Of a stretch of 64,000 nucleotides of DNA, positions 10,360 to 57,422 are shown in pieces. Source of the stretch: Longimicrobiales bacterium (GTDB lineage: Bacteria; Gemmatimonadota; Gemmatimonadetes; Longimicrobiales; Gaopeijiaceae); the NCBI GenBank assembly GCA_963422615.1, contig OY730414.1, positions 1,782,302-1,846,301 of the forward strand. Direction: 5' to 3'. Position numbers and translations under genes: made by a program. Below the pieces are notes generated by a model. That model worked only from the letters and a program-made list of their open reading frames with translations, was not told where the DNA came from and did not search any database. The first letter of the stretch is position 1; every line of letters begins with the position of its first letter.

Positions 10360-11229
10360 ATGCGCAAATCAATCTTTTCCTTGCTCCTGGCGTTCCTTCC
10401 GACTGCCCTGCCGACCGCCGGGCAGATTCCCACCTTGGAATTGGAGAGCCGCGTGGAAGCGGCTCGAAACGCGACCGATCTGAACGTCCTTCTCCGGGGT
10501 GCATCGGCAGCCCGGCTGCTGAGTGAGTTCACCCTAGCGGAGAGTCTCCTGGAGAGGGCCACGCAGAGTTTACGGCAGGCAGATGACGCTTGGGTGAACG
10601 AAATGATCTTCTTCGCCTTGGCGTCGGGGCAGGGGGTCAATGGCATGCAAAGGGCTTTCCGGTCGGCCCGCAGCCGGGTTCGCATGACGCCTCAGCAGAT
10701 TGCATCGGTGACCAACACCTTTCCGGTGCTTCTCATCGGAGGGGAGTTCGACGAGATGATCCTGCAGTTCTCCCCGGATCATCCCGATCCCCAGTATCGG
10801 TGTGCCTGCTTGGCGGAAAAGGCCTGGGTACACAGGGTCGCGGGCCGGTTGCACCAATCACGGATTCTATGGGGGGAATTGGTTTCCGCCTGGGATCGCA
10901 ATCCCCTGGAGTTCGACAGTCCCGACGCCCAGGCCAACTGGCAGGGTCAGTATGCTCGTAACTTGGCCCGGGCAGGAAGAAACGACGACGCCCGGAAGGC
11001 CCTGGATGAGGCGATGTCCATGCCCGTCAGTGACGAATGGCGCCCGACCGTCCAGCGTCGCTGGGCCCAGACCTACGCGGAACTGGGCGAAGTGGAGGAA
11101 GCGGTCGCCCTCCTTGAGCCCCTTGTTGGTTCCACTCTGGTAACGACCCACAGCCTGGCAACCCGTTACACTTGGGAGCCGGTCCGGGACAACCTCACGT
11201 TTCAGGAGATGATCGCCCGGCACCACTGA
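10360..11229 (+). CDS. Secreted helical/TPR-like hypothetical protein
   Basis: Signal-peptide-like MRKSIFSLLLAFLPTALPTAGQ; TPR-like C-terminal half ending WEPVRDNLTFQEMI. Confidence 0.65.
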   Translation: MRKSIFSLLLAFLPTALPTAGQIPTLELESRVEAARNATDLNVLLRGASAARLLSEFTLAESLLERATQSLRQADDAWVNEMIFFALASGQGVNGMQRAFRSARSRVRMTPQQIASVTNTFPVLLIGGEFDEMILQFSPDHPDPQYRCACLAEKAWVHRVAGRLHQSRILWGELVSAWDRNPLEFDSPDAQANWQGQYARNLARAGRNDDARKALDEAMSMPVSDEWRPTVQRRWAQTYAELGEVEEAVALLEPLVGSTLVTTHSLATRYTWEPVRDNLTFQEMIARHH

Positions 11230-11288
11230 AGCCGGGAGGGAGCGGTCTGTTCCTCCGCGCTCTCCCCATTTCCCGAAAGATCTCATCC

Positions 11289-12563
11289 ATGGTTCGAATC
11301 GGGGAAATCGGCTCCGGATCCATCGCGGAAGCCCTTGAGCTTCGCATCGGAACCCGGATCCTGACCGTCAACGGAGAGCGGGTTCGCGATTCCCTGGACT
11401 TCTGGTTCCTGGCCGCGGAAGACGAGCTGGAGCTGGGGGCCGTTGACCCGGATGGCAACCCCGTTGTCTACACCCTCTCCCGGGATCCTTCAGAGAGCCT
11501 GGGAATCGTCCCGGCTCGGGACAAAATTCGGGAGTGCGCGAACGAGTGTGTCTTCTGCTTCATCGACGGAAACCCTCCGGAAGCCCGGGCACCCCTTTGG
11601 GTTCGGGACGATGACTTTCGCCTCTCCTTCACCTATGGCAGCTACGTCACGCTGACCAACCTGGGGCCCCAGGGACTCTGTCGCCTTGTGGATCAGCGGA
11701 TATCCCCGCTGTACGTGAGCGTCCACGCCACGAACCCCGACGTGCGGATCCGCCTCCTGAAGAACGATCGGGCCGGTCTGATCCTGGAGCAACTGGACAC
11801 CCTGCTTCAGGGCGGGTTGCAGCTTCACACCCAAATCGTCCTTTGTCCGGGATGGAACGACAAAGAGGAACTGGACCGCACGATTCGGGAGCTCTACGAC
11901 CTGGGTTCCGGTGTGCTTTCCTTGTCCGTTGTTCCCGTCGGCCTCACCCGCTACAATGTGAACCGTCCCGTGCGATTGCTTCGGGTGCAGGAAGCAGAGG
12001 GGGCTTTGCGCCAGACCGAAGCCGTCCGAACCAGGGCGCTTCGTGAGCGCGGGCATTCCTGGTGTTACGCCGCCGATGAGCTCTTCCTGATTGCCGAGCG
12101 GAACGTGCCTCCCGCGAGCTACTACGACGAGTGGCCCCTTCTGGAAAACGGGGTAGGGGCCTTGCGAACCCTCATTGACGGGTTTGAGACCGGGAAGGCC
12201 CGTTTGGCGCCTGTCCCCGGGGTGGACCGGGTGCGCATCGTGACGGGCGATTCCATGGGTTCCGTCTTCGCGAACTTCATCCCGTTCATTTCCCGGAAGA
12301 TGGAATGTCCGGTGGAGGTGGTCCACGTGGAGAACCGCTACTTCGGACCGACCGTAACCGTAGCCGGCCTTCTTGCCGGGGAGGACATTCTGAAACGAGC
12401 GGGGGATTCGGCGAAGGGCGACTTGGTGCTGTTGCCGGGGGAGGCACTCAACGACGATCTCGTCTTCATTGACGGTCTTCCCCTCTCCCAGGTGGTGAAA
12501 CGGCTGGCTCCCGCTGCGGTGAGGTCAGGTTACGAACTCACCGAAACCCTGCTCCGGTCATGA
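11289..12563 (+). CDS. PDZ + radical-SAM-like DUF512 protein
   Basis: N-terminal PDZ-like GSIAEALEL..INGE-type motif, CANECVFCFID, DDDFRLSF..GSYVTLTN, SVVPVGLTR, ENGVG and VTVAGLLAGED. Confidence 0.9.
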   Translation: MVRIGEIGSGSIAEALELRIGTRILTVNGERVRDSLDFWFLAAEDELELGAVDPDGNPVVYTLSRDPSESLGIVPARDKIRECANECVFCFIDGNPPEARAPLWVRDDDFRLSFTYGSYVTLTNLGPQGLCRLVDQRISPLYVSVHATNPDVRIRLLKNDRAGLILEQLDTLLQGGLQLHTQIVLCPGWNDKEELDRTIRELYDLGSGVLSLSVVPVGLTRYNVNRPVRLLRVQEAEGALRQTEAVRTRALRERGHSWCYAADELFLIAERNVPPASYYDEWPLLENGVGALRTLIDGFETGKARLAPVPGVDRVRIVTGDSMGSVFANFIPFISRKMECPVEVVHVENRYFGPTVTVAGLLAGEDILKRAGDSAKGDLVLLPGEALNDDLVFIDGLPLSQVVKRLAPAAVRSGYELTETLLRS

Positions 12564-13873
12564 GTCTTCCGGTGGTCGCCGTCGTGGGGCGGCCCAACGT
12601 GGGCAAGTCCACCTTCTTCAACCGGGCGGTCGGAAAGCGAACGGCCATCGTGGACGACACGCCCGGGGTAACCCGCGACCGGAACTTCGGACGCGCGGAG
12701 TGGAACGGCCATCCGTTCTTTCTGGTGGACACCGGGGGTGTGGTCGAAGGTTCGAACCGGATCATGGACCGCCGGGTCCGGGAGCAAGCCCTGGCCGCCG
12801 TCCAGGAAGCGGATGTCGTCTTGTTCCTCGTGGATTCCAAGACCGGCGTCCACCCCCTGGATCAGAAACTCTCGGAGGTGTTGCGCAAGACCGCCAAACC
12901 CGTGCTGCTGACCGTCAACAAGGTGGACAACCTTCCGCTGGAACGATCTCATTTGGACTTCTGGGCGTTGGGCATGGGGGAGCCCCTTCCCGTGAGCGCA
13001 ACCGCCGGAAGGGGATTCGGGGACCTGTTTGACCTTCTGATCCCCTTGCTTCCCCAGGACACCTGGGAACCCGAACCCAACGATATCCGGGTCGCGGTCA
13101 TCGGAAAGCCGAACGCCGGAAAGTCGTCCTTCGTGAACCGACTCTTCGGGGAGGAGCGGGTCTTGGTGAGCGAATCCGCGGGCACGACCCGGGATCCCAT
13201 TGACCTTGCCCTCACCTACCACGGTCAGAGTCTCGCCTTCGTGGACACGGCCGGACTGAAGCGCCATGCCCGCATCAAGGATTCCCTGGAGTACTACGCC
13301 AGCCTCCGTACCGTCCGGGTCGTACAGGATGCCGATGTCTGTCTGGTCCTGGTTGACAGCGCAGAAGGGCTGCACGTCCAGGACATCAAAGTCGCGGAGA
13401 CCGCCTGGTCGGCCGGTTGCGGACTCATCATGGTGTGCAACAAGTGGGACCTGGTGGACAAGGACACCCGTTCGGCCGCGAATTTCGAGCGGGAGGCCGG
13501 GCGTCGGGCGCCCTTTCTGAAGGATGTTCCCTTCTTGTTCGTTTCCGCCTTGACGGGTTTTCGGATCCGGAAGGCGCTTGACTTGGTGCTCCAGGTGGCC
13601 GAGACGCGGCGCAAGCGCATCTCCACCGGGGAGGTGAACGAGGCCGTCCAGACCTTGGTCCGGCTCAAGCCCCCTCCCCAGTCCAGAGGACGTCCGGTCA
13701 AGCTCAAGTACGCTACCCAGGCTCGCGTCGCCCCTCCTACGTTCATTCTGTTCTCGAACCGCCCCAACGACATTCCCGTCCACTATCGGCGTTACATTGC
13801 GAATTCGTTGCGAACTCGTTGGAACTTCGCGGGCACGCCGGTCCGGGTCAGGTTTCGCAGGAGTGGGGAGTAA
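12560..13873 (+). CDS. der: Ribosome biogenesis GTPase Der (EngA)
   Basis: Two G domains (GRPNVGKS/DTGG/NKVD and GKPNAGKS/DTAG/NKWD) plus KH-like C-terminus. Confidence 0.98.
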   Translation: MSLPVVAVVGRPNVGKSTFFNRAVGKRTAIVDDTPGVTRDRNFGRAEWNGHPFFLVDTGGVVEGSNRIMDRRVREQALAAVQEADVVLFLVDSKTGVHPLDQKLSEVLRKTAKPVLLTVNKVDNLPLERSHLDFWALGMGEPLPVSATAGRGFGDLFDLLIPLLPQDTWEPEPNDIRVAVIGKPNAGKSSFVNRLFGEERVLVSESAGTTRDPIDLALTYHGQSLAFVDTAGLKRHARIKDSLEYYASLRTVRVVQDADVCLVLVDSAEGLHVQDIKVAETAWSAGCGLIMVCNKWDLVDKDTRSAANFEREAGRRAPFLKDVPFLFVSALTGFRIRKALDLVLQVAETRRKRISTGEVNEAVQTLVRLKPPPQSRGRPVKLKYATQARVAPPTFILFSNRPNDIPVHYRRYIANSLRTRWNFAGTPVRVRFRRSGE

Positions 13874-13903
13874 TTCGTCGGCGGGAGGCGTCAAGACACA
13901 ACC

Positions 13904-14617
13904 GTGACGAGCGTACCGTTTCTGCTGGCGCCGGTTGCGTATGCCGTCGGGGCGATCCCCGCATCGTACTGGATCGGTCGCGTATTCTACAAGAAGGACC
14001 TCTCGAAGCTGGGTAGCGGAAACCTTGGCGCGACGAACGCCTTCCGGGTGCTGGGCTGGCGGGCCGCTCTGCCTGTGGTCGTCGTCGATGTGTTCAAGGG
14101 CTTTGGGCCCGCGTGGTGGTTTCCCCAACTGGACGGGCGGGATGCAGTCTCCTGGGCTGTCCTCTACGGCGGGATCGCAATTGTTGGCCACGTCTTGTCC
14201 TTTTGGGTCGGTTTTCGGGGGGGAAAAGGCGTTGCGACCAGTGCCGGCGTGCTGGCCGCTCTGGCCCCCGCCGCCCTGGCTGCGGGGTTCGGCGTATGGG
14301 TGTTGACCGCCCTGGGCACCCGTATCGTCTCGTTGGCCTCCATCGCTGCGGTGCTGGCGGTTCCCATCGCCGCTTGGCTGCTTCCGGGAACGGAGCCGGT
14401 CCTGCAAGGGTTTCTCTTGTCCTTGGCCTTGTTCGTTGTGTGGGCCCACCGCTCGAACATCCGGCGCCTGCTGGAAGGAAGGGAACCCCGGATGGGAGGT
14501 TGGGGGCGCCGGGCGGGGAAGCGCCGGGTGGGTCAGGAAACTCGAGAAGTCGACCTCGGAGATCGGAGGGCGTTCCGAGCTTCCGATCGGGAAGCGGAAC
14601 GGGGACGGCGTGAATGA
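13904..14617 (+). CDS. plsY: Glycerol-3-phosphate acyltransferase PlsY
   Basis: GSGNLGATNAFRVLG, DVFKG, GH...FRGGKGVATSAG and HRSNIRRLLEGRE motifs. Confidence 0.96.
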   Translation: MTSVPFLLAPVAYAVGAIPASYWIGRVFYKKDLSKLGSGNLGATNAFRVLGWRAALPVVVVDVFKGFGPAWWFPQLDGRDAVSWAVLYGGIAIVGHVLSFWVGFRGGKGVATSAGVLAALAPAALAAGFGVWVLTALGTRIVSLASIAAVLAVPIAAWLLPGTEPVLQGFLLSLALFVVWAHRSNIRRLLEGREPRMGGWGRRAGKRRVGQETREVDLGDRRAFRASDREAERGRRE

Positions 14618-15638
14618 CAGACGCGTGGCCGTGATCGGCGCGGGCTCGTGGGGCACGACCCTGGCCAACCTCCTCGCCGCGTCTGGTGCCCACGTGCGTC
14701 TATGGGCCCGGGAAACGGAGGTAGCAGATTCCTTCCACGCCATCGGGGAGAACTCCCTCTACTTGGACGGGGTTCCACTGAGTCGTTGCCGCCTCTCCGT
14801 GACCAATTCCCTGTATGAGGCCCTTCGAGGATCGGAAGCCGTGGTCTGGGCCTGTCCGGTCCAGTTCTCGGCTGCGGTGCTCGCAGAAGCAGCCCCTTTC
14901 CTGCCGGCAGACGCCATGGTGGTGACGTGTTCCAAGGGAATTGAGGTGAAGACGCTGCGGCGGATGGACGAACTCTTTTCGGAAGTTCTCCCCCGGGCGC
15001 AGGCGCGGCGGCTCTGCGTCCTTTCGGGTCCCAGCTTCGCCCGGGAGGTCTCCTCCGGTGCCCCGACCGCCGTCGTCGTGGCCAGCCGCGACCGGGCCTC
15101 CCGCCTTCGGGCCCAAGCCCTCTTCCAGGGAGAGCGCTTCCGCGTCTACACGAATTCCGATGTCGTGGGTGTGGAGCTGGGCGGGGCTCTGAAGAACGTC
15201 ATTGCTCTCGCCGCCGGGGTGGCTGCAGGACTTGGACTGGGGCACAATGCGGTCGCTGCGCTGATGACTCGGGGGCTGGCCGAAATGAGCCGCCTCGGCG
15301 TGGCCATGGGGGCCCGGCCCGCGACCTTTGCGGGGCTGGCGGGGATGGGGGACTTGGTCCTTACTTGTACCGGAGGTCTGAGCAGGAACCGAGCCGTCGG
15401 ACTTCGCTTGGGGCAGGGCGATTCAATCGGCATGATTCTGGAGGACACGCACTCGGTGGCAGAGGGCGTCGCCACGGTGCGCGCGGTCCACCGTCTCGCC
15501 CGGGAGCTTTCGGTAGAGATGCCGGTGTCAGCCGAGGTCTTCCGGATCGTGGCCCGAAACGCCGACCCCATGGATGCCCTGAACCGTTTGATGACCCGGC
15601 AACCCCGATCCGAGGGTCCAGACCCGGAATCCCCCTAG
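14610..15638 (+). CDS. gpsA: NAD(P)H-dependent glycerol-3-phosphate dehydrogenase
   Basis: GAGSWGT, SKGIE, LSGPSFA, GGALKNVIA, GLAGMGDLVLTC..SRNR and VAEGV motifs; GTG start overlapping plsY. Confidence 0.96.
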   Translation: MNDRRVAVIGAGSWGTTLANLLAASGAHVRLWARETEVADSFHAIGENSLYLDGVPLSRCRLSVTNSLYEALRGSEAVVWACPVQFSAAVLAEAAPFLPADAMVVTCSKGIEVKTLRRMDELFSEVLPRAQARRLCVLSGPSFAREVSSGAPTAVVVASRDRASRLRAQALFQGERFRVYTNSDVVGVELGGALKNVIALAAGVAAGLGLGHNAVAALMTRGLAEMSRLGVAMGARPATFAGLAGMGDLVLTCTGGLSRNRAVGLRLGQGDSIGMILEDTHSVAEGVATVRAVHRLARELSVEMPVSAEVFRIVARNADPMDALNRLMTRQPRSEGPDPESP

Positions 15639-15661
15639 ACCGACTATGGAAACTTGATCCC

Positions 15662-16018
15662 ATGGAGCCGATCGCCAAGAAGACCTACTACTCGATCGGG
15701 GAAGTGAGCGAACTGACGGGCCTCAAAGCCCAGGTTCTCCGATATTGGGAGACCCAGTTTGACACGATTTCGCCGCCCAAGAACCGGGGAGGACGCCGCG
15801 TTTACCGTACGGGCGAAATCGAGATGATCCTCTTGGTGAAGCACCTTCTGTACGAGAAGCGCTTCACGATCGAGGGAGCGAAGCAGAGGCTCAAGGAAAT
15901 GCAGCAGGACGGAAAATTTGCCGATGCGCAGAAACTGAACGCCGAGCCCGCAGTCTTGGCCTCCATCAAGGAAGGGCTCATGGCGGTCCGCGAAGTGTTG
16001 ACCCTTCCCGAAAGCTGA
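15662..16018 (+). CDS. MerR-family HTH transcriptional regulator
   Basis: YYSIGEVSELTGL..VLRYWETQF...KNRGGRRVY..LLYEKRFTIEGAK. Confidence 0.9.
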   Translation: MEPIAKKTYYSIGEVSELTGLKAQVLRYWETQFDTISPPKNRGGRRVYRTGEIEMILLVKHLLYEKRFTIEGAKQRLKEMQQDGKFADAQKLNAEPAVLASIKEGLMAVREVLTLPES

Positions 16019-16032
16019 ACCCAGGCGCTTCC

Positions 16033-16794
16033 GTGCGCATTCTCTGCACCAACGACGACGGCTATTTGTCCCCGGGAATTCGGGTTCTGGCCGAGGCGTC
16101 CCATGCCATCGGATCCGTGGATGTCGTGGCCCCAGACCGGGAGCAGAGCGCGTCCAGCAACGCGCTGACCCTCCATCGACCCCTTCGCAAGCGGAAGACA
16201 CCCGACGGGGCCACCATCGTAGACGGCACCCCCACAGACTGCGTGATTCTCGCCGTCAGCGACTTTCTTGATCACCGTCCGGATCTATGCGTTTCCGGGA
16301 TCAACTCCGGCCCCAACATGGGAGAGGATGTACTCTATTCGGGTACCGTGGCCGCGGCGATGGAGGCTACGATCATGGGGATTCCCGCCGTCGCCTTCTC
16401 CTATGTGGGACGGGTGGAGGAACTGGAGGGGTGGCAGGCGGTGGTCGCCCGCCTCCTGGCCCAGATCGTGGCAAAAGGGATTCCCGTTCACGAATTGCTG
16501 AACATCAACCTTCCCGCCCTGCCGCCCGAAAGAGTCAAGGGGGTGCGCGTGACGACTCTGGGGAGGCGCCGATACACGGAGGCGATCACCCGGGCGCCCG
16601 ACCCCTCCGGGCGGGAGTACTACTGGATCGGCGGGGGGACCACGAGCTGGGACGGTGAACCCGACGCCGACTTCCGTGCGGTGAGGGAAGGGTACATCTC
16701 CGTAACCCCCCTTCACTTGGACCTTACCAGCTATCCCCGGCTGGGCGAAATTCGGGGGTGGGACCTCCACATCCATGAAGCACTGGATCGGTAA
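16033..16794 (+). CDS. surE: 5'/3'-nucleotidase SurE
   Basis: ILCTNDDG, VAPDREQSAS, DGTPTDCV, SGINSGPNMG..YSGTVAAAME and ISVTPL motifs. Confidence 0.97.
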   Translation: MRILCTNDDGYLSPGIRVLAEASHAIGSVDVVAPDREQSASSNALTLHRPLRKRKTPDGATIVDGTPTDCVILAVSDFLDHRPDLCVSGINSGPNMGEDVLYSGTVAAAMEATIMGIPAVAFSYVGRVEELEGWQAVVARLLAQIVAKGIPVHELLNINLPALPPERVKGVRVTTLGRRRYTEAITRAPDPSGREYYWIGGGTTSWDGEPDADFRAVREGYISVTPLHLDLTSYPRLGEIRGWDLHIHEALDR

Positions 16795-18025
16795 CACCCT
16801 CCGGGGCATGTGTATGGGGTTGGCCGACGCAATCCCCGGCGTCTCCGGCGCCACGGTGGCTCTCGTCTTCGGCATCTATCCCCGCCTCATCAACGCCGTT
16901 GCGGGCATGCGAATCGGCCTCCTCAAGCGGTTACGGACGCGGGCGTTTCGGCGCCGCCTGGCGCAAGCGCTGATAGACCCGGAACGACTCGGGAAGGATC
17001 AGGACGGGGCCGACGCAAGCCGCCTGTTGTTGCTTGCGTCCCTGGGGCTTGGGATCCTTCCGGCGCTTGCGACCGGGGCTTCCTTCCTTCCGGGGCTCCT
17101 GGACCTGTACCCGGCCCAAATGCGGGGGCTCTTTCTTGGCCTCGTTTTGGCCTCGGTGACGATTCCGGTCCGGACAATCAAGCACAAGAAACCCCTGTGG
17201 GGGTTCGTGGCGGTGGGCACCGCCTTGGTCACGGCGTGGTTCGTGGGGCTGCCGGAGCGCACCGCCGGACACGCTCGGGGAAGGGTCACCCTGGAGTTTG
17301 CCGCTCCGCTTGAGAGCGATATCGTGCTCACGCCTCGGAACCTGAGCCTAGTGGCGCCGGACCCGGATGGTCACACGGGAGTCGTCTACGGGGTTGCAAC
17401 GTCCGTGGTCGTCCCCGCGGGATCCGTCTTCGTACAAGCGGAAATCATGTCCCGGCGGGCGGGCGTGGACGGAAACCTGGCCGCGGGCGCCATTCGAGAG
17501 GCAAGGGGCTCGGTGCCGGTGTCGTCCGTGTCCCAGCCAGAGCCACTTCGCGGCGGGAGGGATCCCAGCTTGGCCTTCGTGTTTGTCGCGGGCGTCCTGG
17601 CGATTTCGGCCATGAGCCTACCGGGTCTTTCTGGGGCCTTCGTGCTTCTGCTCCTGGGATTGTACCACTTCGTGACCCACTCCCTCAGGCTCGCCATCTT
17701 CAGCGGAGATCCGGGGGCTGCTTGGGTCGTCGCGACCATGGGCGTGGCCATGACCTTGGGGTTGCTCACCTTCGCCCGGGTTGTGAAGCGGATGTTCTGC
17801 CGTTGGCGTGACGCTACCCTGGCTGCCCTGGTGGGGCTGATCCTCGGTTCTCTCAGGAAACTCTGGCCCTTTGTGGAATACGATCAGGAAGGGCGGGAGG
17901 TGATGACCCTTCCCGGAGCGGCGGACCCAGATACGGGGATGGTGCTGGTCCTGTTCCTGGCGGGCGTTGGAACGGTAGCGGCACTGGGGGCAACGGCGGG
18001 GCGGGGGAAGCAAAAAACCCTTTAG
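16775..18025 (+). CDS. DUF368 family membrane protein (putative undecaprenyl-phosphate translocase) with an inserted soluble domain
   Basis: GMCMGLADAIPGVSGATVALVFGIY and AISAMSLPGLSGAFVLLLLGLY repeats, GLILGSLRKLWPF; ~100-aa extra segment between the two halves. Confidence 0.9.
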   Translation: MKHWIGNTLRGMCMGLADAIPGVSGATVALVFGIYPRLINAVAGMRIGLLKRLRTRAFRRRLAQALIDPERLGKDQDGADASRLLLLASLGLGILPALATGASFLPGLLDLYPAQMRGLFLGLVLASVTIPVRTIKHKKPLWGFVAVGTALVTAWFVGLPERTAGHARGRVTLEFAAPLESDIVLTPRNLSLVAPDPDGHTGVVYGVATSVVVPAGSVFVQAEIMSRRAGVDGNLAAGAIREARGSVPVSSVSQPEPLRGGRDPSLAFVFVAGVLAISAMSLPGLSGAFVLLLLGLYHFVTHSLRLAIFSGDPGAAWVVATMGVAMTLGLLTFARVVKRMFCRWRDATLAALVGLILGSLRKLWPFVEYDQEGREVMTLPGAADPDTGMVLVLFLAGVGTVAALGATAGRGKQKTL

Positions 18026-18098
18026 GGGCCGGGCATGACCCTCAGGGCATCCGGACCACCCGCCGATTCGCCGATTGATCTCCGCGTTCGGACGCCGC

Positions 18099-18731
18099 TC
18101 AGTCGGCGGGCTCCCGCTCGATCCACGAGGAGATGATCCCGGCAAGGGAACCGATCAAACCCAGGGAGAGCACAACCAGCCACAACGAGACCAGCTTGCC
18201 CGCGGTGGTCACCGGGTGGTGATCTCCAAAGCCGGCCGATTCCGCTCCGAACAGGGTGGAAACCGACCAGGACAGGGCGTCTTCGGCGGTATGGATGTTC
18301 GCGCTGGCGACCCCGCTCTCAACGCCCAACACGACAAAGCTGCTCGTCAGCATGGAGATGACGATTAGCGAGAAAACCGTGGCCACCAGGGATCGGGTAC
18401 GGTCCACATTGAAGTACGTGGCGATTCCGTGAACACCCCGAGTCGTTGAGCGGATGATCCGGATCATCATGAACAGCCGAAGCGCTCGGAGGGGTCTTAA
18501 GAAACCCACACTGGGAATGGATGCAACCAAGTCTGCCCACCCCCACCGCAACCAGCCGGTTTTCGAGGGCGCGCGGTAAAGATCCCAAGCTGCCTTGCCC
18601 CAGAACATGGCGCAAACCGCCAAGTCCACCCATTCCGCAAGTTCGTGAAATTCCTCACCGGGGGACGACATCTCCCGGAGCCCGAAGACGACCAAAGAAC
18701 CCATGGCCAGCAAGGCGAACAGACTCTCCAT
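18099..18731 (-). CDS. Voltage-sensor-containing 6TM ion channel (KvAP-like) with atypical filter
   Basis: S3 DLVASIP, S4 LRPLRALRLFMMIRIIR, pore helix DALSWSVSTL and GFGDHHPVTTAGK; alternative start at 18809. Confidence 0.8.
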   Translation of the reverse strand: MESLFALLAMGSLVVFGLREMSSPGEEFHELAEWVDLAVCAMFWGKAAWDLYRAPSKTGWLRWGWADLVASIPSVGFLRPLRALRLFMMIRIIRSTTRGVHGIATYFNVDRTRSLVATVFSLIVISMLTSSFVVLGVESGVASANIHTAEDALSWSVSTLFGAESAGFGDHHPVTTAGKLVSLWLVVLSLGLIGSLAGIISSWIEREPAD

Positions 18732-18784: not shown

Positions 18785-19966
18785 TCACCGGGCTCCTCGG
18801 GTCCGGCATCGGACCAGGAAGTCGTCGATGGACACGATCGGCTTTCCGTACTTCCGGGCCGTTCGGGCTTTGACCGACGCGCTGGACACGTCCGAGGCCA
18901 CAAGAACGTCGCAATTCCCCTTGGTTACACTCGGGACGGGCCTCCATCCGTTTTCGCCAGCGAGATCCTGCAGTTGGCTTCGACGCCATAACCGGCCTTG
19001 AACCATGGCCTGCCCCGTAAAGCAGATTCGCATCCCCGGAGACCAGTCCGGCCCGCCCGCACAAGGTGTCGGCTCGGGAACGCTCGACGCGTCGACCCGA
19101 AGCTGGACCGCGATCCGCTGGAGAATTCTGTGTTCGGCGTCGCTGACGAATCCGTCGCGCTCGGCGGCATCGACCATGCTCCGGAAGTAGGCGCGGTGAA
19201 CCTCCTGCTGTCTGGATCGAGTCAGACCCCAAGCCCTCGCAAGCTTGTCCATCTCGGACCGCTCCGCCCGATCGATGACGCCGTCGTCCAGCACCCAATC
19301 CAGCGCGTCAAGGTAACAGATCGTCGCCTCGTCTCCGAACGCGTAGGTGGACCTGCCGACAACCCGGTGCATGAGACTGGCCTCCGCATCCGCAAGTCCC
19401 CGGCGGTGCGTTCGCGGGGTGGCAAACGGGACAGTCCCCTCCACCAACGTGGGATGGGCGGGCAGGTTGCGATCCTTGAACCCCAATCGCTTGGCGAGTT
19501 CGGCGGTACAGCGAGCGTCGGCCAGGGCCCGGTGGGCGCGGGTCAGATGTATTCCCGCCTCCTGGCAGGCCTCGTTCAGTTTGGCACGGGTCGCGCTCAG
19601 CGTGCACCAGCCTTGGCCAAATTCGATCGGTACGCCCTGCCGCTCGAACTCATAGCGAATCATGCGCGTGTCGAAGGGCAGGTTGTGGGCGATCAGAACC
19701 GCCCCGCGCAATCGCCGGGCCACGGCAGGAAGCACGTCTGCAAAAACCGGGGCCAGCTCCACCATCCCGGCTGTGATTCCGTGTACGCCGGTCGGACCCA
19801 CATCCCGTTCCGGGTTAACCAGGGTGTCGTACTCGTCCACTGTCTCCCAGGTCTCCCGGTCAAGGGCGACGATCGCAATCTCGACGACCCGATCCCGCCT
19901 GCCGAATCCGGTGGTCTCCACATCGACCGCCGCGAGCTTCGGGCGCTGCTCAAGTACGCTTCGCAT
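18785..19966 (-). CDS. DnaQ-like DEDDh 3'-5' exonuclease with TerB-like and BRCT domains
   Basis: VDVETTG, HGIT, IAHNLPFD and HRALADA; central LDDGVIDRAE/ERDGFVSDAE; C-terminal ICFTG..SVTK..DVLVASD..KARTARKYGKPIV. Confidence 0.88.
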   Translation of the reverse strand: MRSVLEQRPKLAAVDVETTGFGRRDRVVEIAIVALDRETWETVDEYDTLVNPERDVGPTGVHGITAGMVELAPVFADVLPAVARRLRGAVLIAHNLPFDTRMIRYEFERQGVPIEFGQGWCTLSATRAKLNEACQEAGIHLTRAHRALADARCTAELAKRLGFKDRNLPAHPTLVEGTVPFATPRTHRRGLADAEASLMHRVVGRSTYAFGDEATICYLDALDWVLDDGVIDRAERSEMDKLARAWGLTRSRQQEVHRAYFRSMVDAAERDGFVSDAEHRILQRIAVQLRVDASSVPEPTPCAGGPDWSPGMRICFTGQAMVQGRLWRRSQLQDLAGENGWRPVPSVTKGNCDVLVASDVSSASVKARTARKYGKPIVSIDDFLVRCRTRGAR

Positions 19967-56793: not shown

Positions 56794-57422
56794 GACGATC
56801 CAGATGCTTCCTCTGTCGATCCCTTGTGACGCGTCTTCCACCAGAGGACGACAACCAGGGCGGCGAGGAGCACCGACGCCGCGGCCAAGCCCCGGTTCAT
56901 CCGTTTGACTGCCGCGACCACGGCCTCCAGGTTATCGCCGGCCGGATAGCCGACAAGAACCAGCGCCCCGTACCAGATGGCCGAAGCCAGCAAGATCGGT
57001 GGCACGACCCGAAGTGGCCGCTGGCGGGTCACACCGGCAAAGACGGGAACCAGGGCTCGGAAGCCCGGGAGAAAGCGGGCGACGAAAATGGCCATCACGC
57101 CCCAACGTTCGTAAAAGGACTCCAGCCGTTTCATTTGCTTGGTCGGCATGAGGCGGCGCCCTCGGCCCTTGAAAAAGAAGTCAGGTCCGTATCGCCGTCC
57201 CGCAGCGTAAACCGCGGTCGCGCCTGCGGTGTTGAACGCCCACACGGAAAGGAACATTCCCACCGGGTGAACCGCGCCCAACCCCGCGACAAAACCCCCG
57301 ACCAAGACGAAAGTATCCGCCGGTACCACGGGGAAGACGTTCTCTAGCGCCGCCCCGGCAGACAAGAGGACGCAGACCAGGAAGGGCGAGAGGCCGTTCA
57401 GAAAGGCGAGGGCCTCTTCCAT
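56790..57422 (-). CDS. DedA family membrane protein
   Basis: LENVFPVVPAD, YAAGRRYG and FVARFLPGFRALVPVFAG motifs. Confidence 0.92.
   Translation of the reverse strand: MEEALAFLNGLSPFLVCVLLSAGAALENVFPVVPADTFVLVGGFVAGLGAVHPVGMFLSVWAFNTAGATAVYAAGRRYGPDFFFKGRGRRLMPTKQMKRLESFYERWGVMAIFVARFLPGFRALVPVFAGVTRQRPLRVVPPILLASAIWYGALVLVGYPAGDNLEAVVAAVKRMNRGLAAASVLLAALVVVLWWKTRHKGSTEEASGSS

Follow-up and report, generated by a model that had tools for sequence, protein, structure and literature searches.

Proteins of the DUF368 family, known also as PopT or VCA0040, are C55-P translocases (PMC9876793; bioRxiv 10.1101/2022.02.03.479048). In the available parts of these two reports, the family is described as having two-fold inverted symmetry and, on either side, re-entrant loops (Roney and Rudner, bioRxiv 10.1101/2022.02.03.479048), as well as a large predicted cleft and conditional roles linked to pH and sodium (Sit et al., PMC9876793); the DUF368 fusions described so far, going by the accessible part of the latter, are with PAP2 or BacA. 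Baseplate wedge proteins of the J/gp47/gp6 type (PF04865, phrog_6; PDB 9euf, 8kea, 9g8s, 9ki1, and 5iv5) are found in a tail or injection-system context and have, besides their barrel, N-terminal helices and trifurcation and dimerisation domains. In the wedge protein of phage 812, the “wing” domain is a protein-binding surface for hub, spike, and sheath initiator, according to excerpts of PMC13433997; those of PMC10966104 add nothing on the wedge barrel. We describe here a gene in which the two families appear to meet, found in a stretch of 64,000 nucleotides of a Longimicrobiales genome, hereafter called the window.

The DUF368 gene and its central loop

The gene (16775..18025, + strand) codes for a protein of 416 aa, and its start overlaps by 20 nt the stop of surE, located directly upstream (16033..16794, +). 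A conserved housekeeping run on the same strand (11172..16018), made of DUF512, engA, plsY, gpsA, and a merR-type gene, leads into the surE-DUF368 pair; the names engA, plsY, and gpsA are derived from Pfam families. An earlier note, made from the sequence alone, had taken the host protein for a DUF368 member, and it does belong to this family, as PF04018 matches it in two stretches with an E-value of 4.6e-51 and a score of 174 bits vs. a curated cut-off of 26. Its N-terminal half-repeat (aa 1-160; 16775..17254, +) comprises the re-entrant motif PGVSG (aa 21-25; 16835-16849, +), a K/R-rich loop (aa 44-84) whose side of the membrane is predicted, and three membrane helices, while the C-terminal half-repeat (aa 265-416; 17567..18025, +) comprises the re-entrant motif PGLSG (aa 283-287; 17621-17635, +), three membrane helices, and a basic tail. 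In the AF2 model of the whole chain (pLDDT 88.7, pTM 0.83), PGVSG and PGLSG each interrupt a helix pair, one in either half-repeat, and the predicted layout would be the inverted one of described DUF368/PopT translocases; all 118 aligned rows share the P, G, S, and G of both motifs. The fold searches turned up no solved structure of a family member.

What differs from the described translocases is the central loop. Between the two motifs, where the loop is 5-10 aa long in 65 of 71 outgroup DUF368 genes surveyed from loci L011-L080 (31-41 aa in three others and 103-115 aa in the last three), sits an insert of 102 aa (aa 163-264; 17261..17566, +), exactly where the earlier note had placed it. 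When 28 barrel-bearing rows of known phylum were compared with 66 short-loop rows, G15, P21-G22, S24-G25, A29, P283-G284, S286-G287, Y297, and G358 were 100% conserved in both loop types. Since the core motifs are equally conserved in fusions and short forms, the transporter core of the fusions looks intact. As the genome also has one DedA-family gene (a single match), the DUF368 flippase may have a conditional role in this organism, as in the cases described in the available part of PMC9876793. That DedA-family match lies about 39 kb away, at 56946-57326 (-) of the window. On the downstream side, a related strain's contig skips 96 bases (18001-18096), including the final DUF368 codons, and an ion-channel-like gene (about 18099-18728, -) stands beside a DnaQ-type exonuclease whose middle part is weakly TerB-like (18785-19966, -).

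The positive-inside rule states that positive charge is found on cytoplasmic loops. In the Gemmatimonadota rows, net charges of +1.9, +4.2, +2.6, +3.2, and +1.6 for the inside loops and of -0.5, -0.8, and -1.4 for the outside ones alternate as predicted for a protein with its N-terminus in, insert out, and C-terminus in, and the inverted symmetry of the family agrees. Judged by these loop charges, the insert is thus probably periplasmic, the side that the earlier note had proposed.

Matching the insert to known domains was not straightforward with a single sequence. Alone, it matches Pfam Baseplate_J with an E-value of 0.15, below the cut-off, and phrog_6 (“baseplate wedge subunit”) with 9.6e-5; phmmer against PDB sequences gave chance tubulin hits only, and the best ESM Atlas score (0.75, a Baseplate_J cluster) is to be read as a lead only. 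Its relatives are more telling, as phrog_6 is matched at E<=0.01 by 106 of 118 aligned ones, PF04865 is matched at E<=1 by 31/31 inserts (best 1.7e-7), and the PF04865 label was precomputed for 42/120 relatives among the matches listed. A profile built from 31 inserts retrieved 293 proteins from 1.84 billion. Among the profile matches listed, 148 proteins were new, 19 of them DUF368 fusions and 129 others; the 52 of these 129 that were scanned all passed the PF04865 cut-off (52/52). Six further repeat-rich hits, with no PF04865 match listed, were rejected as barrels, being partial matches of Ig/Calx-beta type, one of which owes its E-value of 2e-31 to 26 summed repeats. Four proteins (P0191, P0194, P0211, and P0229) each contain at least two tandem baseplate-type barrels. 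The motifs common to the insert and the baseplate wedge proteins are G-N and G-G-x-D.

The structural comparison points the same way. AF2 models an all-beta domain at residues 166-253, and the top nine Foldseek rows obtained with the model are baseplate chains. Residues 164-264 align with the phage 812 wedge at Z 12.9 and an rmsd of 2.5 Å, with 98 of 102 residues aligned; over the wedge proteins as a group, Z is 9.6-12.9 and the rmsd 2.3-2.8 Å over 90-98 residues, at 14-23% identity. In an unbiased structure search, 16 of the 17 rows with Z>=8 were phage or injection-system baseplates, the other being GlxA. These models strongly support the claim of a baseplate-J-like insert, with the barrel fold of the wedge proteins. 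As the matched range in the phage 812 protein (74-172 of 347) comes after the N-terminal helices, it is probably the wing domain. Unlike a wedge protein, the insert is barrel only (about Pfam positions 20-112 of 255): the N-terminal helices and the trifurcation and dimerisation domains are absent, the barrel is flanked by DUF368 helices, and its neighbours are housekeeping genes in place of a tail or injection-system cluster. The absence of phage genes nearby, remarked upon in the earlier note, extends to the whole genome, which is 98% complete: PF04865 has no match at E<=1, tail sheath (PF04984) none at E<=0.1, and injection-system proteins, baseplate, sheath, and tube included, gave no match.

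The GC3 of the insert, 0.75, is similar to that of the two halves (0.83 and 0.76), and its median dN/dS is 0.31 vs. 0.14 for the core, below 1 in 65/65 pairs, which are non-independent and include duplicate loci, and up to 0.66 in some. By this measure, the insert is under purifying selection, its rate of change being roughly double that of the core. In a set of 28 diverse inserts, conservation is mainly of Gly, Ala, Val, Asn, Gln, Pro, and Asp; no aromatic residue is conserved, nor any obvious catalytic one. As these conserved residues are structural, an enzyme is unlikely.

Distribution and history of the fusion

The search for this architecture called for in the earlier note showed it to be present in two phyla. 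A strong insert match was found in 27/401 genomes of the window's phylum, all in the window's family (genus g3, 24/24) and all within a DUF368 ORF; named relatives are Longimicrobiales or Gemmatimonadota assemblies. The insert is found in 120/120 relatives among the matches listed, with 115-118 residues over positions 155-270 of the query. DUF368 itself is matched in 33/151 genomes of the family and in none of the remaining 118: 19 have an unsplit form, 14 a split one, and none has both. Twelve of the 14 split forms were read, all with the barrel (12/12), and the 10 read of the 19 unsplit forms have loops of 0-7 aa. Four weak insert matches in other families (E 3-8e-4) were discarded, three of the loci having no insert-profile hit and the fourth match having no locus. 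In the phylum of the Myxococcales record L010, 59/301 genomes matched; the 51 that were read comprise 12 with the barrel, 33 with a second type of insert (three of them assigned by alignment of natural short forms), one with another insert of 53 aa, four short forms, and one undetermined. The fusion is, thus, fixed in one Longimicrobiales lineage and also present in Myxococcota. Several Myxococcota fusions share a common locus (bamA ... rhomboid, fxsA, DUF368, HU, efp), and in one Myxococcota subclade (L117-L121, L124, L160, L161, and L163) fxsA is a divergent neighbour of the barrel-DUF368 gene.

In a tree of the loop-free core (44 rows, loop removed), the barrel-bearing proteins form one clade (19 rows, 100/99), in which the eight Gemmatimonadota rows (100/98) are nested in a 14-row clade with six Myxococcota rows (100/99). 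A quick tree of 120 rows agrees in nesting Gemmatimonadota among Myxococcota barrel forms, and neither tree has a short-loop member inside the barrel-bearing clade. The insert-only tree likewise recovers a single clade (100/97), nested in the same manner though less well supported. An origin by insertion in place, in the native gene of Gemmatimonadota, would group the barrel forms with three short Gemmatimonadota forms; an AU test rejected this grouping (p 8e-51), on a quick tree with one long row left out and with the grouping chosen after seeing earlier trees. We take this as moderately strong evidence for one old barrel insertion shared by Gemmatimonadota and Myxococcota.

Given the nesting, the whole fused gene was probably transferred: the likely course is an insertion in Myxococcota, then transfer of the fused gene, then replacement at the native surE-(pcm)-DUF368 slot, the direction of transfer resting on rooting with short-loop outgroups. 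The short-loop relatives have the order surE-pcm-DUF368; their pcm has no tblastn match in the window's genome, and the fused gene stands directly after surE in all Gemmatimonadota loci read except that of genome G160, where a long-branch barrel-DUF368 with a shorter insert of 99 aa (L107/L159) lies away from the surE locus. The slot behind surE-(pcm) in Gemmatimonadota is occupied by DUF368 genes from three tree branches (L020, L030, L036, L154, L155, and positions 16033-18025 of the window), which suggests repeated replacement in place.

Other domains at the same loop and other homes of the barrel

A separate Myxococcota clade (95/97), which includes Bradymonadaceae and Lujinxingia, has a different, unannotated insert at the same DUF368 loop, seen in 33/51 genomes read (L014:6421-6750, L018:1428-1772, L059, L125-L142, and L231-L249; Myxococcota, Bradymonadia). 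It is 64-115 aa long, with a variable helical excursion, and AF2 models it as strand-helix-helix-(extra helices)-strand. The long form matches LysM over 12 columns only, with a probability of 25%, which rises to 35-79% when the extra helices are dropped; six natural short inserts match 45 columns, i.e., a whole LysM, with an HH probability of 89%, while 60 shuffles gave at most 9%. Pfam gave no LysM hit, the ESM Atlas no usable hit, and the whole LysM-type model only membrane-helix matches in fold searches. From these profiles, the second insert is probably LysM-like, a putative cell-wall-binding domain. A P2 gpX-like origin, by which both inserts would derive from baseplates, was rejected, as cellular LysM is the better match (89% vs. 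23%; a comparison with eight gpX rows agrees). In the core trees, the LysM-like clade branches apart from the barrel clade, and a sister relation was not recovered.

The barrel, for its part, is also found in a single-pass Chloroflexota protein of roughly 495 aa, where it follows a membrane helix (L111:1492-2988, L112:1462-3039, L218-L230). This protein was matched in 38/81 genomes (one of the 38, G1008, is unpublished); its gene lies before ruvX in 11/15 loci and near mltG in 9/15, and no sheath, tube, or gp25 match was found in these short loci. Like the DUF368 insert, it is an isolated barrel in a housekeeping locus; it differs by the absence of a transporter and by barrels that group apart from the DUF368 inserts. 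We found no paper on it. Another likeness is domain 2 of GlxA from Streptomyces lividans (PDB 5lxz, 4unm), an inserted beta domain of an envelope enzyme that is extracellular and anchored in the membrane; excerpts of PMC11022532 place this domain outside the cell. It aligns with the insert at Z 8.1-8.7 and an rmsd of 3.1 Å over 91 aa at 13% identity, a weaker match than the baseplates and one of fold only.

These findings bear on the origin of the barrel, which the earlier note had called a domesticated phage domain. The baseplate fold stands; local capture does not, in view of one old insertion probably transferred whole. The barrel-domain tree resolves no donor and the same barrel is found in a Chloroflexota cellular membrane protein, so a phage is no more than a candidate for the direct donor. 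The resident Myxococcota injection system was considered as donor and rejected: its barrel, scored on the insert profile, is of a split type and reaches at most 17 bits per half vs. 50-60 for the best compact wedge proteins. In two of the Myxococcota genomes (G654 and G570), such clusters lie 27-38 kb from barrel-DUF368 (L215:5086-19861 and L217:10076-16931), with tube-LysM, a baseplate J protein of about 1000 aa, a PASTA-Tail_P2_I fusion, and FHA proteins; gp25 and sheath were seen in that of G654.

Possible roles of the insert

It is about an even call, in our view, that the protein is a flippase whose added periplasmic module serves for docking or tethering and not for catalysis. It would be a working PopT-type undecaprenyl-phosphate flippase made of two inverted half-repeats, its activity being that of its family; the loop joining them would be a folded, non-catalytic, wing-type baseplate-J barrel facing the periplasm. 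The barrel would dock an envelope partner, either a wall polymer or a protein of wall synthesis or glycan transfer, thereby keeping the flippase at the site where spent carrier lipid is released. We favour this because of the LysM-like domain in the same loop of a separate clade and of the Chloroflexota barrel placed after a membrane helix. The fully conserved core motifs, loop charges that put the insert outside, an insert dN/dS below 1 in every pair, and trees in which insert and core each form one clade are consistent with such a module, as are the similar fold of the extracellular GlxA domain 2 (Z 8.7) and the protein binding of the phage 812 wing reported in the available part of PMC13433997. 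On the other side, the conserved insert residues may reflect upkeep of the fold just as readily as binding, and the insert changes at about double the pace of the core; a loop of 5-10 aa is enough for most DUF368 proteins, and 118/151 genomes of the family gave no DUF368 match. The LysM-like clade being a separate branch, and its LysM a profile match with no Pfam hit, the analogy is indirect; it nevertheless lends some substance to the link to envelope polymers suggested in the earlier note.

A wider version of the docking idea, which we put forward tentatively and rate as possible at best, is that the loop at the centre of DUF368, on the periplasmic side, serves as a plug-in site where targeting modules, LysM-like in one clade and a baseplate-type barrel in another, would place Und-P recycling where the wall is synthesised. 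The baseplate-type barrel would then be a general envelope-binding domain that bacteria reuse, in the Chloroflexota protein as well and perhaps in GlxA.

The same loop also takes inserts of other kinds (31-53 aa; LysM-like, 64-115 aa), and one may ask whether the barrel is not simply a tolerated passenger, which arrived a single time in a surface loop that tolerates inserts and was kept only as less harmful than a decaying insert. The mostly structural conserved residues and a dN/dS that exceeds the core value and reaches 0.66 in some pairs would fit this rather improbable case. Yet no short-loop member was found in the barrel clade in trees of 120 or 44 rows, although precise loss of the insert would give back an ordinary loop; moreover, the insert length is near constant in the 120/120 relatives among the matches listed, and the fused gene appears to have displaced the native short form.

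Somewhat more doubtful is a lid or regulator, in which the barrel would pack on the outer face of the membrane domain and gate or shield the outward-open cleft, perhaps from antibiotics that bind Und-P, or adjust the activity to pH or salt. In the AF2 model, the end of the insert directly precedes the second re-entrant helix, and the whole-chain pTM of 0.83 may reflect a defined orientation of the barrel; the family's large predicted cleft and its conditional roles, linked to pH and sodium in the available part of Sit et al. (PMC9876793), would also suit a lid. A LysM-like domain of a different fold at the same site elsewhere argues against it.

That the barrel imitates a wedge wing so as to bind baseplate parts of phages or injection systems, as a decoy or as an anchor for a system of the cell itself, we consider very unlikely. 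The phage 812 wings do bind hub, spike, and sheath initiator (PMC13433997, in part), and a separate large Baseplate_J protein was present in 5/5 tested Myxococcota genomes with the fusion, in two of which the clusters are 27-38 kb away. The window's genome, however, has no baseplate, sheath, or tube gene, and the barrel of the resident Myxococcota system is of the split type, neither half exceeding 17 bits against the insert profile. A decoy in the periplasm would also be poorly placed, since baseplates are assembled in the cytoplasm and remain outside during infection. Even less credible is a periplasmic sensor signalling the state of the envelope, which could call on a probably extracytoplasmic domain and on the merR-type gene earlier in the operon: Pfam finds no output domain, the merR-type gene is upstream of short-loop forms too, and the insert has no conserved ligand-pocket residues. 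For the decoy and the sensing module, both raised in the earlier note, we found no supporting evidence.

Lastly, an assembly chimera or chance similarity, for which only the single-sequence Pfam score below the cut-off could be invoked, can be set aside, as the insert is present in all 120 listed relatives, Z is 12-13 over 96-98 residues, and contigs from three studies cross both junctions gap-free and in one piece (one, X3, may be the source of the window DNA; another, X6, belongs to a strain showing 48 differences across 1601 bases).

We found no literature joining “DUF368” and “baseplate”, most subscription papers being outside the coverage of the search, and a broader search revealed no DUF368-barrel fusion, in line with the earlier note; “DUF368” and “LysM” gave only an unrelated mention in the available part of PMC12826051. 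Supplementary Table 3 of Sit et al. (PMC9876793), as far as accessible, lists “DUF368-DUF368” proteins of 412-439 aa in Gemmatimonadetes and 409-462 aa in Myxococcales/Bradymonadales, which, by length and taxon, are probably single domains split by an insert; in 12 of the 16 supplementary files, the only tables to mention “baseplate” are two on V. cholerae, with type VI genes in the places shown. NCBI names members of the barrel-bearing family only “DUF368 domain-containing protein”. The insertion of this domain in a known transporter family is, thus, real, old, and conserved, and it is apparently new to the literature; the family itself was tied to carrier-lipid recycling only recently. A folded domain of 100 aa, naturally tolerated, is a landmark for the topology of the family and could serve as a cryo-EM fiducial. 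As an independent case of a baseplate-J barrel used outside tails, it also means that a “baseplate J” annotation alone is no proof of a prophage. With two unrelated extracytoplasmic domains at one loop, the positioning of recycling at wall-building sites becomes testable; if the loop is truly a plug-in site, this would be a first handle on the spatial coupling of the carrier-lipid cycle and would give a cellular function to a phage wedge domain.
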